DNA from: Candidatus Nanoarchaeia archaeon
GTDB taxonomy: Archaea; Nanobdellota; Nanobdellia; Woesearchaeales; GW2011-AR9
Length of the DNA: 64,000 nt
Direction: 5' to 3'
NCBI GenBank assembly: GCA_035289845.1
Contig: DATDWB010000027.1
Location: 621 to 64,620 of the forward strand
Below are positions 10,743 through 58,253 of this stretch, piece by piece (the first letter of the stretch is position 1; the number at the start of each line of letters is the position of its first letter). The translations under genes were made by a program, and so were the position numbers. The notes under the pieces are model-generated. The model saw nothing but the letters and a program-made list of their open reading frames with translations. It was not told the origin of the DNA and did not search any database.

Positions 10743-12872
10743 ATGTCTCTGAAGAAAAAGGAAAAAGGCGCCGATTGGTTTACTGTAGAAGTTGATTCAA
10801 AGGGAATCCTAACCCATTATCCTAAAGATGCCCTCCACGGATTAAAATCTATCCGGCTGCAGGTAGATTACGAGCCGGAAGCCTTGTACCTTCAGCTAAC
10901 ACAGGGGAAAAAACTTCTTAGCTCAGCAGTAGTGGATGGATCTTTCTACGAAAACTTTGCCGAACAATTACGTAAGGGGGCAGTATTAGAATTGCAAACT
11001 TCAATCGTTCAGGAGACAGAAAATGATCCGCCCATTCCTCGGCTGAAGATAAATTCTTTAAGAATTAACACCGATAAGCAATGGTATCTAACCCACCGCA
11101 CTGCTTATACCTTAGAAGATTTAACCGAGATTAAAAGAGAAATAAGACGGCGGGATGCTTATTATGATTCCTTAGCAGTTAGAGATAAAAAAAAGCAGAT
11201 TAAAATTCTTCAAAGAACGGAAAATGATCTTGATTTAGAAGATAAAATATCAGGTAAATTGGTTGAAGAACGTGGAGAGGAAGTGGAAGATGAAGATTTT
11301 AAAGAAAATGATTCTTCCACTGCCGAGGATTACATTGGGGCATTTACTTACCCAGAAATTAAACGAATTTCGCGGCAGCTGGGAATTAGACGACCCAGAT
11401 CGCCTGCCTCACCGCCCAGTCAAGGTGGGGGAAAAATGAAAAGCAATTCTGATCCACTCCAAATTGATTCTTACAGCTTAATTGAACAAGACCTGTCAAA
11501 ATCCAAAATACTCTCCAAAGAATCTGAAATTCAACTTTGTAAAAAAATAGAATCAGCCAAAAATTTAATCCAAAAATTAGGTTCAGAATTACCAATAACC
11601 CTAGCGATGTATTTCCCAAGTGAAATGCCTAAGGCCCTATCCAAATCATTAGAGTTATTGCATCAATGGAAAATTAATTATAATAATACTAATAATGGTA
11701 ATGGTATACTGGAGGAATATTTTAATTTTAAACCGTTTGATTGCGACCCTGAAAAAATTACCCAAACCGAAATGGAATTAGAATCCATTATTAAATCCTG
11801 GAAGAAGTTAGGACTGCTGGGATCGCCAATATTAGATGAAGTTTTTAAAAATACAGATCCTGAAAATGTATCTTTTTTCTCAGAAAAATATATTAGACCT
11901 TTAGGTTCGCTAAGAGCATTAGCTAAGATACCTTTTAATTCCCAAGTTAAAAAAGAATTAATCCGCTGGGCGGTGGAAAGAGGATTACAGGACTATTTGC
12001 ATAAGAAATCACCCGAAGAATCTACTTATTACAGAAAACAAGGCAATGGCTTTAGATTAAACAGCAGCTATTTTATATCTAAATATATAGAGGGTGAAGT
12101 AAATTATAATCAGTTAGTGGGAGAATTTGCCAAAGCAAATATGCGGTTAGTTAGATCTTATGTTAACCGGTTTAGTGGTTATTGCTCGGGAGCAATTGCC
12201 CTTACCGATCTTTTCCAGGAAGGCAACCTGGGTCTGCTTAGAGCCATCAAAAAGTTTGACTGGCGGAAAGGTCATAAGTTTTCAACTTATGCTACTTGGT
12301 GGATCTACCAAGGAATTAGCAAGTATGCCAAAGATAACAACAGCTCAATTAGAATTCCCTTGCATCTCCAAGATAAAATTCATAACATCAAAAAATATTA
12401 TTCTAATTTTACTCAACTATATGACCGGGAGCCTACCGCAGAAGAATTAGATCTTGAATTTCCTCCCGGCCAGCAGGGAAAGAAGTCGGGAAGTGATATT
12501 CTAAAAGAAGCCCGTTCAGCAAAAGTTTATTCTCTTAATTCAAACATCAATACCGAAGATGACAGTGAAAAATTCAAGTTAGACAAATATATAGATGGAA
12601 ATGAAGAAAACTTGGTTGGGTTCATGGCAGTTGAAAAACAGTCTGAAACACAAGTTTATGACCAAGAACTGTTAGAAAAAAATAATAGGATTATTAGCGA
12701 GGTTTTGGGTAAACGAGAAGCAGAGATAATCCGTAAACGGTTTGGGTTGTATCCCTACCAAAAGATTTATACTTTAGAAGCTATCGGAAATACTTTTGGT
12801 CTAACCCGAGAACGGATTAGGCAGCTTGAACAAATATCTATGTTAAGGTTGAAGGAAAAAATCATAAAATAA
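10743..12872 (+). CDS. sigma-70 family RNA polymerase sigma factor (RpoD-like: regions 1.2, 2, 3, 4) with long N-terminal extension
   Basis: Region 1.2 'DPLQIDSYSLIEQDLSKSKILSKESEIQLCKKIE'. Region 2 'ANMRLVRSYVNRF...LTDLFQEGNLGLLRAIKKFDWRKGHKFSTYATWWIYQGISKYAKDNNSSIRIPLHLQDKIHNIKK'. Region 4.2 HTH 'VLGKREAEIIRKRFGLYPYQKIYTLEAIGNTFGLTRERIRQLEQISMLRLKEK'. Confidence 0.8.
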   Translation: MSLKKKEKGADWFTVEVDSKGILTHYPKDALHGLKSIRLQVDYEPEALYLQLTQGKKLLSSAVVDGSFYENFAEQLRKGAVLELQTSIVQETENDPPIPRLKINSLRINTDKQWYLTHRTAYTLEDLTEIKREIRRRDAYYDSLAVRDKKKQIKILQRTENDLDLEDKISGKLVEERGEEVEDEDFKENDSSTAEDYIGAFTYPEIKRISRQLGIRRPRSPASPPSQGGGKMKSNSDPLQIDSYSLIEQDLSKSKILSKESEIQLCKKIESAKNLIQKLGSELPITLAMYFPSEMPKALSKSLELLHQWKINYNNTNNGNGILEEYFNFKPFDCDPEKITQTEMELESIIKSWKKLGLLGSPILDEVFKNTDPENVSFFSEKYIRPLGSLRALAKIPFNSQVKKELIRWAVERGLQDYLHKKSPEESTYYRKQGNGFRLNSSYFISKYIEGEVNYNQLVGEFAKANMRLVRSYVNRFSGYCSGAIALTDLFQEGNLGLLRAIKKFDWRKGHKFSTYATWWIYQGISKYAKDNNSSIRIPLHLQDKIHNIKKYYSNFTQLYDREPTAEELDLEFPPGQQGKKSGSDILKEARSAKVYSLNSNINTEDDSEKFKLDKYIDGNEENLVGFMAVEKQSETQVYDQELLEKNNRIISEVLGKREAEIIRKRFGLYPYQKIYTLEAIGNTFGLTRERIRQLEQISMLRLKEKIIK

Positions 12873-16216: not shown

Positions 16217-16345
16217 TTATAGAGAAGTTTGAAAAAAAGTAATTTTGGTAAATATATTGTTTGTTTAAAGTCAAAATTACGACTATTTCAAACTTCTCTT
16301 TAGAACTTTGCTAATAAATCATCTAATTTTGCAAAGTTCTCTATA
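16217..16345. repeat. palindromic intergenic repeat element, copy A (nested hairpins)
   Basis: Perfect 14-bp inverted repeat 'AGAGAAGTTTGAAA ... TTTCAAACTTCTCT' (16221..16299) with an inner 'GTAATTTTGG...CAAAATTAC' pair. A second hairpin 'AGAACTTTGC ... GCAAAGTTCT' (16302..16340). Lies between the convergent genes at 16209 and 16393. Related to copies at 18933, 38650 and 53281. Confidence 0.6.
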
Positions 16346-18277: not shown

Positions 18278-18934
18278 ATGTCCCTAGATAAAGTATTGGA
18301 TGAGAAGGAAATATATTGTATCGGAATTTATTGGACAGATGACGAATGGAATAAAAGGAAAGAAATAGTCTGGCCGCTGATTAGAGAAGAAGCCGATTTA
18401 TGCGCCTATGCTGGGATTTATTTTCTGGACGATCGTTACCAAGAATTAAAAGATGAACTTGAACAAAGAGTATTGAGCTCCCCCGATAGTTCTTATATTG
18501 CTATCCTTAGATGGAATGACAACCGGATTGGGCCAGTATTACAACAGGCAGCGGATGCAGTTTCAAAATCACCCCGCCACAGTTATCTGGCGGGAATAAA
18601 ATTGAGCGAAGTACGGTTCAATGAAATTGGTTATCTAATCTGCAGGGGTGTTCTTGAGAGCAAGGTGTATACTAATATTGTATTAGAAGTTAATCCTGAA
18701 ACTTGGGAAAGCTGCAGAAAAGAGACTCTACTCCGAATAGAACTGGAATTAGAAGAAATAAGGAAAAGCACCCAATCAGAACAGGAAAGAGAAAGAATAA
18801 AGAAAGGCGGACGAGTATCGGTAGCAGCGAATGATAAAGCCAAATTATCATTAAGCAAAGAAGGTAATTCTATAATCGAAACTCCCTCTTCGCCAAATCG
18901 ATGGTATCAGAAATTATGGCCTAATAAATCTTAA
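18278..18934 (+). CDS. hypothetical protein (218 aa)
   Basis: ORF only. Its stop codon abuts repeat copy B. Confidence 0.4.
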   Translation: MSLDKVLDEKEIYCIGIYWTDDEWNKRKEIVWPLIREEADLCAYAGIYFLDDRYQELKDELEQRVLSSPDSSYIAILRWNDNRIGPVLQQAADAVSKSPRHSYLAGIKLSEVRFNEIGYLICRGVLESKVYTNIVLEVNPETWESCRKETLLRIELELEEIRKSTQSEQERERIKKGGRVSVAANDKAKLSLSKEGNSIIETPSSPNRWYQKLWPNKS

Positions 18935-19054
18935 GAGAAGTTTGCATAATTAAATTATTTATCCGCAAACTTCTAAAGAGAATTTGAAATAAACGTAATT
19001 TTGGTATTAAACAACGATATATTTGCCAAAATTACTATTTTTCAAACTTCTCTT
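18933..19054. repeat. palindromic intergenic repeat element, copy B
   Basis: Hairpin 1 'AGAGAAGTTTGC-ATAATTAAATTATTTATCC-GCAAACTTCT'. Hairpin 2 'AGAGAATTTGAAA...GTAATTTTGG...CCAAAATTAC...TTTCAAACTTCTCT'. Near-identical to copy C at 53281. Confidence 0.6.
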
Positions 19055-19090
19055 AACAAGTTATTTATAACCCTCTTCTTTTATTCCCTC

Positions 19091-19795
19091 ATGGTCACTC
19101 TAACTTACCAGGAACGCTTCAAAACCATTAAAGGAGTGTTTGATGAATTTACCAACCGCACTTTGTTTATTTTACAAAAAAAAGGCTGTTTTGATAAATT
19201 GGTAAGCCCGATAGCCATAGGAAAAGAAAGCAACGTTTTCTTAGCCAGCCGAAACGACAGCCAGGTAATTGTTAAAATCTACCGCATTCAAAACGCTAAC
19301 TTCAGCAAGATGTTTAGTTATATCAAAAAAGATCCCCGTTATGGATTTCTTAAAAATCAGCGCCGGCAAGTTATATTGTCTTGGGCCCAGCGGGAATATA
19401 AGAATTTGCTGAAAGCTAACCAGCTTAAGATAAACATTCCAAAAGTTATCGGCTGGAAGAATCATATTTTAGTTGAAGAAATGGTGGGAGATGCTAACCC
19501 GGCACTTAGACTTAAAGATTCCCCTCCTAAAAATCCTTTAGCTATGTTTAAGGAGATAGTAACAGGAATAAGAACCTTATATAAAGGAGGGCTTATTCAT
19601 GGAGATTTGTCTCCCTTTAACATTCTTAATTTCCAAGAAAAACCCTATTTTATTGATTTTTCTCAAGCTACGATCACTAAAACGCCTAATTCAGAAGAAT
19701 TGCTGCAGCGGGATGTTAAGATTATCTGTAATTTTTTTAATAAAATGAATATTAGCGCCAATTTTAAGCAAACGTTTTTAAAAGTGACTAAGTAA
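19091..19795 (+). CDS. rio1: RIO-type serine/threonine protein kinase
   Basis: 'AIGKESNVFLA' Gly-loop-like segment, 'KIYR' Lys, catalytic 'LIHGDLSPFNIL' and 'FIDFSQA' metal-binding loop. Start set to the internal Met at 19091, because the 19001 start would run through the repeat. Confidence 0.8.
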   Translation: MVTLTYQERFKTIKGVFDEFTNRTLFILQKKGCFDKLVSPIAIGKESNVFLASRNDSQVIVKIYRIQNANFSKMFSYIKKDPRYGFLKNQRRQVILSWAQREYKNLLKANQLKINIPKVIGWKNHILVEEMVGDANPALRLKDSPPKNPLAMFKEIVTGIRTLYKGGLIHGDLSPFNILNFQEKPYFIDFSQATITKTPNSEELLQRDVKIICNFFNKMNISANFKQTFLKVTK

Positions 19796-25276: not shown

Positions 25277-25331
25277 GTTTAATTTTCTTATCAGAAATAT
25301 TTAAAAGTTAGGTGAATAATAGAACCACGAT

Positions 25332-25427
25332 GGGTCCGTAGCCTAGCCTGGATAGGGCGACAGCCTTCTAAGCTGTAGATCGGGGGTTCGAATCGGCCTA
25401 ATAACCACGAAAGTCCCCTCGGACCCA
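25332..25427 (+). tRNA. tRNA-Arg(TCT) with ~21-nt insertion (putative intron) in the T-loop/T-stem junction
   Basis: Acceptor GGGTCCG/CGGACCC, D-arm GCCTAGCCTGGATAGGGC, anticodon stem ACAGC/GCTGT with loop CTTCTAA, T-stem GGGGG + TTCGAAT. Then 'CGGCCTAATAACCACGAAAGT' intervenes before the 3' T-stem CCCCT. A/T-rich box ~25 nt upstream and an oligo-T tract downstream. Confidence 0.75.
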
Positions 25428-25492
25428 TTTTTATTTGATCTTTCCTTTCATTCGGAAACTTTTTAAAGCAGATAGGTTTCGATCACTACTAT

Positions 25493-25625
25493 GCGCCCGT
25501 CGCCAAGCGGCTAAGGCAATCGCCTGCAGATCGGCTAGTATCAGCCTTTATCGGCCATAACTAGGAGACAGCGATTATACGAGGGTTCGAGCTGTGCTTA
25601 GTACACGAAATTCCCTCCGGGCGCT
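25493..25625 (+). tRNA. tRNA-Cys(GCA) with two putative introns (~40 nt at 37/38 and ~20 nt in the T-loop)
   Basis: Acceptor GCGCCCG/CGGGCGC, D-arm GCCAAGCGGCTAAGGC, anticodon stem ATCGC/GCGAT with loop CTGCAG|...|A interrupted by ~40 nt. T-stem GAGGG + TTCGAGC, then 'TGTGCTTAGTACACGAAAT', then CCCTC. TATA-like 'TTTTTAAAG' upstream, oligo-T downstream. Confidence 0.7.
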
Positions 25626-38649: not shown

Positions 38650-38698
38650 TATAGAGAAGTTTGCGGATAAATAATTTAATTATGCAAACTTCTCTATA
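38650..38698. repeat. palindromic repeat element, copy D (hairpin 1 only, 15-bp perfect stem)
   Basis: 'TATAGAGAAGTTTGC-GGATAAATAATTTAATTAT-GCAAACTTCTCTATA' between convergent genes. Overlaps the stop codon of the minus-strand gene that ends at 38694. Confidence 0.6.
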
Positions 38699-51231: not shown

Positions 51232-51432
51232 GTGCGCGTGCCGGAGTGGTCAAACGGGACGGTTCGTTTGGCATGTAGGTGCTAATATGAGTCCAGACTC
51301 AAGTCGTTAGGGCAATGAGGTTTCCATAAGAAATCGGTGAAGTGTCCGGGAGCCATCCGTTGGTTTAGTACCTACGCAGGTTCGAACGCCAGTATCCTTA
51401 AGTGATCTGGATCGAAAGCCCTGCCGCGCACA
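51232..51432 (+). tRNA. intron-rich tRNA gene (~201 nt), identity unresolved: tRNA ends with ~32-nt T-loop insertion plus a large internal insertion
   Basis: Acceptor GTGCGCG/CGCGCAC plus discriminator A. D-arm CCG-GAGTGGTCAAA-CGG. T-stem GCAGG + TTCGAAC, then 'GCCAGTATCCTTAAGTGATCTGGATCGAAAGC', then CCTGC. Possible extra arm GGT-TTAGT-ACC. About 90 extra nt in the anticodon region. Followed by 'TTTTTATTTTT'. Confidence 0.5.
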
Positions 51433-51724
51433 TTTTTATTTTTGCTTCAACGGAGATATTTAAGGCAAGATATTATTTTTTGTTTAAAATAGATGATGGT
51501 AAAATAAACATAAAACCTACTTGGTATAAGGTAAGTTATTCTTTGGGGATGTAGGCAAGGATCAAATAGTAAGAAAAATTAGGTTGTGATTACCCACCTC
51601 AAGATAAAGTAGAAGGCCTAGCTAGCTTAGAATGGATTATTAGGATTACCCCAAAAGGAAGGAGTACCAGATTAAATTCTTCCAAAACCACATCTTTTTT
51701 AAAGGCAATTACTTTCCCTATCCC

Positions 51725-53065: not shown

Positions 53066-53280
53066 GTTTATAAGTAGGATCTTTTTTGATTTTTAAAAAA
53101 AAATGATGCCTAAAAATATTTTTCCCCCTTATGATCCAACTACTGAAAATTTAACAGCAGTCATCGCAATAAATATTTTACAACTAAAAAGCTGGATAAT
53201 ATTCGGGCAAGGTTAAATTCTGAAACTAAAAATTCTAAAACCAATTGATATATTTAGATTAGCATGGACTTATACCAGCC

Positions 53281-53402
53281 ATAGAGAAGTTTGCATAATT
53301 AAATTATTTATCCGCAAACTTCTAAAGAGAATTTGAAATAAACGTAATTTTGGCATTAAACAAATGATATATTTACCAAAATTACTATTTTTCAAACTTC
53401 TC
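53281..53402. repeat. palindromic intergenic repeat element, copy C (near-identical to copy B)
   Basis: 'ATAGAGAAGTTTGCATAATTAAATTATTTATCCGCAAACTTCTAAAGAGAATTTGAAATAAACGTAATTTTGG...CCAAAATTACTATTTTTCAAACTTCTC'. Same orientation and architecture as 18933..19054. Confidence 0.6.
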
Positions 53403-53729
53403 CATAATAAAATTTATTTATCTAATGCCTTATTTTACGACCACCCCTATTTAAGCGTTGAATATTTGGAGATAGTTTCGGCCAATCTGCCTGAAGGAGG
53501 GTTGATTTATAGTGTAAAAATGACTAGAGGACAGGTTTATACTCCGCCTTCAACTAAAATAGATATAGAACTTACAAAAATCGCTAATCTGAAAATACAA
53601 ATAATCAGATGTTGATCACTGAAGTCTACCGAGTCCGACCTAAAAACAAGGAGGGGTAGAAACAATACCCTCCATTACAACAATTTTTATAAAGGAAACT
53701 CCTTCTGAGGGAACATTAAGGGTGGAATT

Positions 53730-57908: not shown

Positions 57909-58253
57909 TTATTCTAATAAGCATCCGCTGCGTAAACTTAAATCTTCCAATGATAACTTGCCTACCTCCCTAGTCCCATCCTCAAATACCCAAGTGGGGT
58001 AAGAAGTTATGCCGGCAAAATTGCAAACTTCTCTTTGCCCGCCACCTTCCAGAGCGCATTCAATATAGTTAACTTCACTAAAACTGCTTCCAAAGAGAAG
58101 TTTTTGTTCTTTACAATGCGGACACCAATCTGCCCCATACATTTTAACACCTTTTTCAGTCAAACATTGAGCAAATTCTTTGCTGGCTCCGTTGCAGCTA
58201 ATTAAAAAGATGGTCAAAACAGCCATTAATAAAATTAAATACGTTTTTTTCAT
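57909..58253 (-). CDS. thioredoxin-like lipoprotein (lipobox LISC, CPHC active site)
   Basis: Signal 'LILLMAVLTIFLISC' ends in a lipobox-like L-I-S-C. 'YGADWCPHCKEQK' thioredoxin motif. Confidence 0.6.
   Translation of the reverse strand: MKKTYLILLMAVLTIFLISCNGASKEFAQCLTEKGVKMYGADWCPHCKEQKLLFGSSFSEVNYIECALEGGGQREVCNFAGITSYPTWVFEDGTREVGKLSLEDLSLRSGCLLE

Follow-up and report, generated by a model that had tools for sequence, protein, structure and literature searches.

The four palindromic repeats carried by this 64-kb stretch of DNA (64,000 nucleotides, analysed as a whole and referred to here as the window) are very probably members of a MITE family: they are non-coding, have inverted ends and are bounded by 4-bp target-site duplications (TSDs). 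The family has the structure by which MITEs are defined, a known kind of element, and it is widespread in Woesearchaeota-type DPANN archaea. The first-pass annotation had offered two readings of the repeats, either as small mobile palindromic elements with an insertion preference downstream of genes, or as sequences acting at the RNA level in transcript 3' end formation, stability or protein binding. The first of these is strongly supported by terminal inverted repeats, TSDs, near-identical copies and a target motif; the second is neither needed nor favoured by the orientations of the copies, their occurrence within genes, the scarcity of G-U pairs and the lack of a matching Rfam family.

The window is archaeal, with ~37% GC, and encodes DnaG, a RIO kinase, a KH protein, PCNA and a beta-CASP RNase; the top-ranking homologues of the RIO kinase, which bear the labels Woesearchaeota or Nanoarchaeota, reach no more than 68% identity. 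Four copies, designated A to D, had been noted in it, and a covariance model built from nine family members and run with filters off finds just these four, the remaining matches in the window being opposite-strand echoes or having E > 0.1. A plain search for AGAGAAGTTTGC with up to two mismatches gives 16 matches in the window, where 7.2 are expected and shuffled sequence never yields more than 14; an extra exact match at 58023 lies within an ORF and has no partner arm, and was set aside as chance. Much of the first description holds at this finer scale: copies B and C are indeed near-identical (99% over 81 nt and 95% over 40 nt), the perfect 15-bp stem of copy D and the 14-bp outer stem of copy A are correct, and copy D does consist of module 1 only, also in reverse orientation. 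The exception is copy A, which had been described as having its two hairpin modules in opposite order. This was a misreading, as copy A is the entire element reverse-complemented, being complementary to copy C over 80 nt at 90% and over 54 nt at 85%, an inversion of the whole length. The exact limits of the copies (Table 1) were read from the window sequence using the family-wide definition of the termini. All four are flanked by a 4-bp direct repeat, and their density extrapolates to ~60 copies per Mb.

Table 1. Extents of the four repeat copies in the window and of the 4-bp duplications that flank them.
Copy	Position	Strand	Form	Score (bits)	TSD	Left TSD	Right TSD
A	16222-16341	(-)	two-hairpin full MITE, 120 bp, C-type, module 1 termini GAGAACTTTGC/GCAAAGTTCTC	108	TATA	16218-16221	16342-16345
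B	18935-19052	(+)	two-hairpin full MITE, 118 bp, G-type	116	TTAA	18931-18934	19053-19056
C	53284-53402	(+)	two-hairpin full MITE, 119 bp, G-type	117	CATA	53280-53283	53403-53406
D	38654-38694	(-)	solo module 1, 41 bp: two terminal repeats and a 19-nt loop		TATA	38650-38653	38695-38698

The strongest evidence for mobility comes from the ends of the elements and the bases just outside them. Among 34 diverse elements the ends GAGAAsTTTG…CAAAsTTCTC are nearly invariant; they form terminal inverted repeats of ~16 bp (left GAGAAsTTTGmAwAAT, right its complement), 14 of the 16 positions matching in the window copies, and over 112 sequences the first 10 pairs of the element are 99.5% paired. Immediately outside these ends a perfect 4/4 direct repeat is present in 105 of 122 non-redundant elements (86%), a set drawn from ~1 Mb of related DNA (chiefly DPANN contigs from groundwater) that was sampled by the exact module 1 pattern. 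When the comparison is shifted 5 nt outward the 4-bp repeat occurs in only 2 of the 122, and re-pairing left with right flanks at random across the elements yields 16 on average and never more than 28. Where the flanking 4-mers are non-palindromic, 72 are repeated directly and none in inverted form, which identifies them as a true duplication rather than an extension of the palindrome. The duplicated target has the consensus C(TWWA)G, in which the bracketed bases are those repeated (C at -1 in 50%, T in 94%, then W and W, A in 78%, and G at +4 in 47%), and TATA is enriched as a target 52-fold over background. A 2-bp TA duplication of the IS630/Tc1-like kind was also considered and is ruled out, as the repeat is 4 bp long and repeats of the TAAA and TATT type are direct.

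The elements fall into length classes of about 41, 77-78 and 117-120 bp, with mosaics of up to 299 bp. In the smallest form, module 1 alone (36-41 bp), two ~12-bp terminal repeats enclose a 12-19-nt loop, and this form has its own 4-bp TSD; the common form of ~118 bp adds a second, longer hairpin (module 2) with the same kind of ends, and other genomes contain a form with a short module 2 (~77 bp) as well as mosaics with extra small hairpins. None of these AT-rich hairpins contains a transposase ORF, and they are small and have no coding capacity of their own. Near-identical copies recur at many sites, as a result of recent amplification: G-type elements, which include copies B and C, have a mean pairwise identity of 97.6% over 17 distinct sites, C-type elements such as copy A 95.6% over seven, and the 41-bp solo form 100% over eight, copy D being 100% identical to seven further solo copies elsewhere; because 26 positions of module 1 were set by the search pattern, part of the identity in that module reflects how the copies were ascertained, but no such constraint applied to the loop or to the 78-nt module 2. 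The flanks and the TSD differ at every G-type, C-type and solo site. In the mosaics (L006 4482-4700; L014 5637-5750; L052 639-773; L101 about 11124-11240, minus strand; and L108, minus strand), small hairpin units such as TTCTGTCACTnnGTTCCGA and GGTTGCnnnGCAACC occur in variable number between the arms of module 2. We also considered whether selection favours elements whose length plus 4 is divisible by 3; this is unsupported, since the rule holds for 59 of 105 copies but for just 10 of the 21 distinct lengths.

Three of the four copies in the window adjoin a stop codon or lie between convergent genes, as had been noted at the outset. Copy A is situated between a convergent pair, a 283-aa ORF and DnaG. 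Copy B is between a 218-aa ORF and the RIO kinase gene (start at 19091), and begins one base past the stop codon of the former, whose TAA (18932-18934) sits within the left TTAA duplicate. Copy C is 218 nt past the beta-CASP RNase gene, in the 664-nt spacer between that gene and PCNA. Copy D, again between convergent genes, touches a stop codon: the stop of a 257-aa minus-strand ORF (38694-38696) is made up of the last base of the element together with bases of the TSD, and in the reconstructed empty site a TAA occupies the codon that is now TAG, so that protein length is unchanged. A separate observation at copy C is an 83-aa ORF on the plus strand (53364-53615) whose ATG start lies inside the element; it is without a Pfam match and has also been called publicly on L001 and L003, and the repeat has probably given rise to a spurious gene call here.

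A bias toward gene 3' ends, which the first description had proposed to check on more copies, is present in the wider set. Of 67 intergenic insertions that could be classified, using crude ORF models with ~83% coding, 40 are in tandem, 17 in convergent and 10 in divergent spacers. Convergent spacers are thus enriched, receiving 25% of insertions against 14% of spacer length, and divergent spacers are depleted (15% against 30%), with a tandem share of ~56% expected by spacer length. Between tandem genes the median insertion is 25 nt past the upstream stop, compared to 109 nt before the next start. Orientation is not fixed, the tandem contexts comprising 14 sense and 26 antisense insertions with no sense bias. 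Intragenic copies are exceptional, with two confirmed among about 105, and both are in frame: at L065 (4839-4915) a 77-bp element plus TSD (81 nt, 27 codons) lies in the DHO_dh domain of a 401-aa ORF resembling dihydroorotate dehydrogenase, and at L118 (742-869) a 128-bp element plus TSD (132 nt, 44 codons) interrupts a membrane protein of the PMT_2 type, similar to glycosyltransferases. Two circumstances would place the elements against gene 3' ends, namely that TWWA overlaps the stop codons TAA and TAG as well as AT-rich gene tails, and that insertions into promoters and ORFs would be selected against in compact genomes. We infer that target preference and purifying selection together explain the position without an RNA role.

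The hairpins themselves are very stable. Copy B folds at -37.2 kcal/mol, with z scores of -8.0 (forward) and -5.6 (reverse) relative to shuffled sequence, and in a model-based alignment of 112 distinct sequences 95.8% of cells are paired, against 29-54% with slid partners. Double changes occur in 20 of 32 pairs, with observed values above every shuffle, and there are 210 double-change cells compared to about 28 with a change on a single side; this alignment was fitted to the structure, which favours pairing, and the same compensatory pairs appear in plain MAFFT alignments. The covariation that had been suggested as a check on the stems is therefore found, and it is almost solely Watson-Crick, with few G-U pairs; columns 13/86, for example, have CG in 55 sequences, GC in 46, UA in nine and G-U in none. 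Covariation of this kind would be expected of a constraint on a DNA duplex, or on either strand of it, for example the need of a single transposase for symmetric ends or the folding of a DNA hairpin, and is less expected of an RNA made from one strand.

These features bear directly on the main alternative, in which the repeats are cis-acting 3' UTR RNA structures (terminators, stabilisers or protein-binding hairpins) that are kept beside stop codons through their RNA function, their spread being incidental. Such an interpretation draws on the very stable hairpins and strong covariation, on the proximity to stop codons and enrichment between convergent genes, and on a run of T5-T7 that follows the inner hairpin in the forward orientation in copies B and C, oligo-T tracts being an archaeal termination signal. 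We nonetheless consider it unlikely. Tandem insertions show no preference for the sense strand, the TSDs and the identical loops at many sites point to insertion rather than local evolution, the rarity of G-U pairs implies a constraint on both strands, and some copies are in frame within genes. In addition, Rfam gives no match in the window at gathering thresholds (matches of copy B at E up to 10 are hairpin noise), and a scan for bacterial-type terminators leaves the elements unflagged. Individual copies may have a secondary effect at the RNA level.

As a MITE, the unit would insert at the short palindromic target C(TWWA)G with duplication of the central four bases, and would be moved by a transposase acting in trans through 4-nt staggered cuts, most simply a dimeric DDE enzyme. 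The minimal mobile unit would be module 1 alone, and both the stability of the hairpins and the covariation of their stems would follow if the two ends and the internal palindrome are kept symmetric at the DNA level. A different transposition chemistry has some appeal, as the repeats might be REP/BIME-like or IS200/IS605-derived palindromes mobilised in single-stranded form by an HUH (Y1) transposase of the RAYT or TnpA type: the hairpin architecture, extragenic location and mosaic, BIME-like modular build are all suggestive, and a unit of 36-41 bp would be easier to handle as a folded single strand. Y1 transposition, however, as known for IS200/IS605 elements and REPs, generates no TSD and uses a fixed tetra- or pentanucleotide on one side only, whereas here a variable 4 bp is duplicated on both sides in 86% of elements; there is also no conserved GTAG-type head, and no Y1 gene recurs at the examined loci, so that we regard this origin as highly improbable. 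A still weaker proposal is that the repeats are dispersed sites for a dimeric host DNA-binding protein, nucleoid or regulatory, with the 4-bp repeats as part of the site; it would suit the palindromic symmetry, the Watson-Crick-only covariation and the fact that the termini and the GCAwAAT start of the loop are conserved in many genomes, but can be practically dismissed, because the flanking 4-mers vary and are repeated directly in the manner of an insertion, because whole elements including their loops are identical at unrelated loci, and because some lie in ORFs.

Within the MITE interpretation the size of the solo hairpin raises a mechanistic question, as 36-41 bp is very short for a conventional looped paired-end complex and the chemistry may be unconventional. 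The boldest version, which we advance as a rather unlikely one, is that the solo hairpin ranks with the shortest DNA elements known to transpose actively. A unit of this length would be unable to form a loop of duplex DNA, and might instead be recognised in folded form, be it a cruciform or a single strand, or be bound along straight DNA by a transposase dimer; the enzyme would be one so far overlooked in DPANN genomes, or would come from outside the chromosome of the cell. If true, the family would be a MITE superfamily present throughout the lineage, without a partner and also able to remodel proteins by in-frame insertion.

Against the MITE interpretation, no autonomous element or transposase with the family termini was found in the ~1 Mb of related DNA, in which a search for long elements of 300-6000 bp with strictly the same ends and a matching TSD yielded none. 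The candidates that relaxed ends gave in L065 and L100 arise where separate MITEs happen to pair up, and they enclose nothing that resembles a transposase ORF. Viral contigs, searched with an orientation-specific pattern, and plasmid and phage collections gave no family match. Only one gene recurs in different contexts at the loci, an RtcB-like housekeeping gene, and there is no recurrent mobile gene.

Searches for unoccupied sites were likewise negative within the DNA examined. BLAST with reconstructed sites returned no orthologous empty site, the insertions are present in all of the exact-protein contigs with no empty allele, and diverged orthologues, from relatives at most 68-72% identical, gave no filled/empty pair. 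The RNase-PCNA spacer of L063 is 193 nt long compared to 664 nt in the window, and the two spacers are not alignable. Overlapping loci compared for indels showed no polymorphism of the MITE family. The nearest approach to a filled and an empty site is a paralogous pair: an uninterrupted palindrome in L124 has a single TATT where L023 reads TATT-element-TATT, an arrangement that fits insertion and, between paralogous sites, gives a weak hint of it. The palindrome concerned is a second repeat, AGTGAGCGACATAAGTTT...AAAAATGTCGCTCACT, located at about 375-560 in L023, with the MITE at its centre, and at 22-77 in L124; it could belong to a further repeat family or be a hairpin resembling a terminator. 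We note that a different tiny mobile element from the same community does present a filled/empty pair, as a 47-bp palindromic mini-element, TATACACAATTCC...GGAATTGTATAG, is present in L048 (1946-1992) and absent at about 10343 in L112, the two contigs being about 90-95% identical.

The family shares with other prokaryotic MITEs its small size, lack of coding capacity, TIRs, TSD, many near-identical copies and the ability to form hairpins. Archaeal MITEs, which include SM1-SM4 of Sulfolobus and those of Halobacterium and Haloquadratum, are about 89% intergenic (PMC10969869, PMC11602168), and the archaeal hosts named in a 2024 review of prokaryotic MITEs are few, namely Sulfolobus, Halobacterium, Haloquadratum, Desulfurococcus and a small number besides (PMC10969869). 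In a 2024 census that covered 8,220 archaeal genomes, one of the highest archaeal densities, 105 MITEs per Mb, is reported for a Woesearchaea genome, and the smallest archaeal MITE measures 41 bp (PMC11602168); both the high Woesearchaea density and the 41-bp form have counterparts in our family. We found no description in the literature of a family with GAGAAsTTTG ends, a 4-bp TWWA TSD, two hairpins and a 36-41-bp unit, the census MITE sequences themselves lying outside this comparison. A difference from other prokaryotic MITEs is that no parent IS was found.

With regard to such a parent, the ends of IS5-family elements typically start with GA or GAG in the ISfinder classification, like the termini described here. 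The IS5 family also shares the 4-bp duplication of a short, AT-centred, near-palindromic target, IS5 itself duplicating 4 bp at YTAR (PMC5009759). The present target is TWWA within C..G rather than YTAR, and no IS5-like transposase was found beside or between such ends. An IS5-like parent, as suggested by the 4-bp duplication and the GAG-type ends, is the best guess, but a tentative one with the odds against it.

Several bacterial repeat families offer further parallels. The Correia elements (CREE) of Neisseria are about 100-150 bp long, with inverted-repeat ends, a short AT duplication and no known cognate transposase; they differ in being bacterial, in having terminal repeats of 26 bp, in their unrelated sequence, and in a duplication of 2 bp, TA. 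Their copy number runs from dozens into the hundreds, and the promoters and RNase III sites that they carry can influence adjacent genes (PMC10969869). The Rickettsia palindromic elements (RPEs) are similarly palindromes of a reduced genome that are found in frame in genes without destroying them (PMC10969869), but are mostly intragenic and without clear TIRs or TSDs, unlike the predominantly extragenic family described here. Pneumococcal BOX and enterobacterial BIME elements resemble the mosaics listed above in combining hairpin modules in variable number; BIMEs and REPs nonetheless have no TSD and depend on a RAYT, and neither BIME nor BOX sequences are related to the present family.

In a collection of species-representative genomes the strict module 1 pattern has 17 matches, nine of them in DPANN MAGs (Woesearchaeota, Nanoarchaeia/Nanoarchaeota and Pacearchaeota) and 11 either in a DPANN MAG or with the same two-module layout. 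The other six, from Rhodocytophaga, two Pseudanabaena, Saccharibacteria, Armatimonadota and Faecalibacterium, lack the loop motif and module 2 and are unrelated palindromes. A module 2 of the same design directly follows module 1 in seven loci (L008, L011 and L013-L017), and L006 has the two-module layout with additional sequence inside module 2. A metagenome scan with an orientation-specific pattern recovered at least 116 stretches, mostly from groundwater, and the covariance model gives 120 matches in 719 kb of related DNA. Two of the 17 strict matches, at L008 (7840-7969) and L011 (4512-4641), are in a MAG labelled 'uncultured Methanosarcinales archaeon'. These contigs have a GC content of 36-39%, the genes of L011 are surface-sugar enzymes, and the same subfamily is also found on contigs with a Woesearchaeota-like PCNA (L053 and L063); the Methanosarcinales label is probably the result of mis-binning, although the element may instead be shared between a DPANN cell and a host.

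DPANN archaea have very small genomes and are usually regarded as poor in mobile DNA, which gives a MITE family in them a wider interest. It offers a marker by which strains can be typed and mis-binned DPANN metagenome contigs recognised, its defined termini are a handle for finding the missing transposase, and its in-frame insertions in enzymes provide a second group of reduced genomes, besides Rickettsia, in which repeats enter proteins in this way. The family also accounts for contig breaks and for spurious small ORFs that start in repeats. Two such breaks involve the copies described here: a public contig of the same population stops 25 nt into copy D (L140, 3774-3798), and another (L002) starts in copy C, 357 nt before PCNA, and retains just the right terminus of the element, at positions 15-30. 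Contig ends inside an element are expected of a repeat, which limits the contiguity of assembly.

Two other features of the window are worth recording. Interrupted tRNA genes with non-canonical introns are located at 25330-25432, 25493-25625 and 51232-51435; ARAGORN reports no tRNA in the window and Rfam nothing at gathering thresholds. Taking a 20-nt insert out of the T-arm of the gene at 25330-25432 gives a clean tRNA-Arg(TCT), and the other two appear to have several inserts each. The shared 3' ends of these tRNA genes constitute repeat family D3 of the window repeat search. Finally, a 709-aa ORF on the plus strand (10743-12872) has matches to Sigma70 region 2 (E 3.5e-15) and region 4 (E 8.2e-09) in its C-terminal third; these bacterial-type domains are unexpected in an archaeon, and the protein may be a horizontally acquired or repurposed DNA-binding protein.
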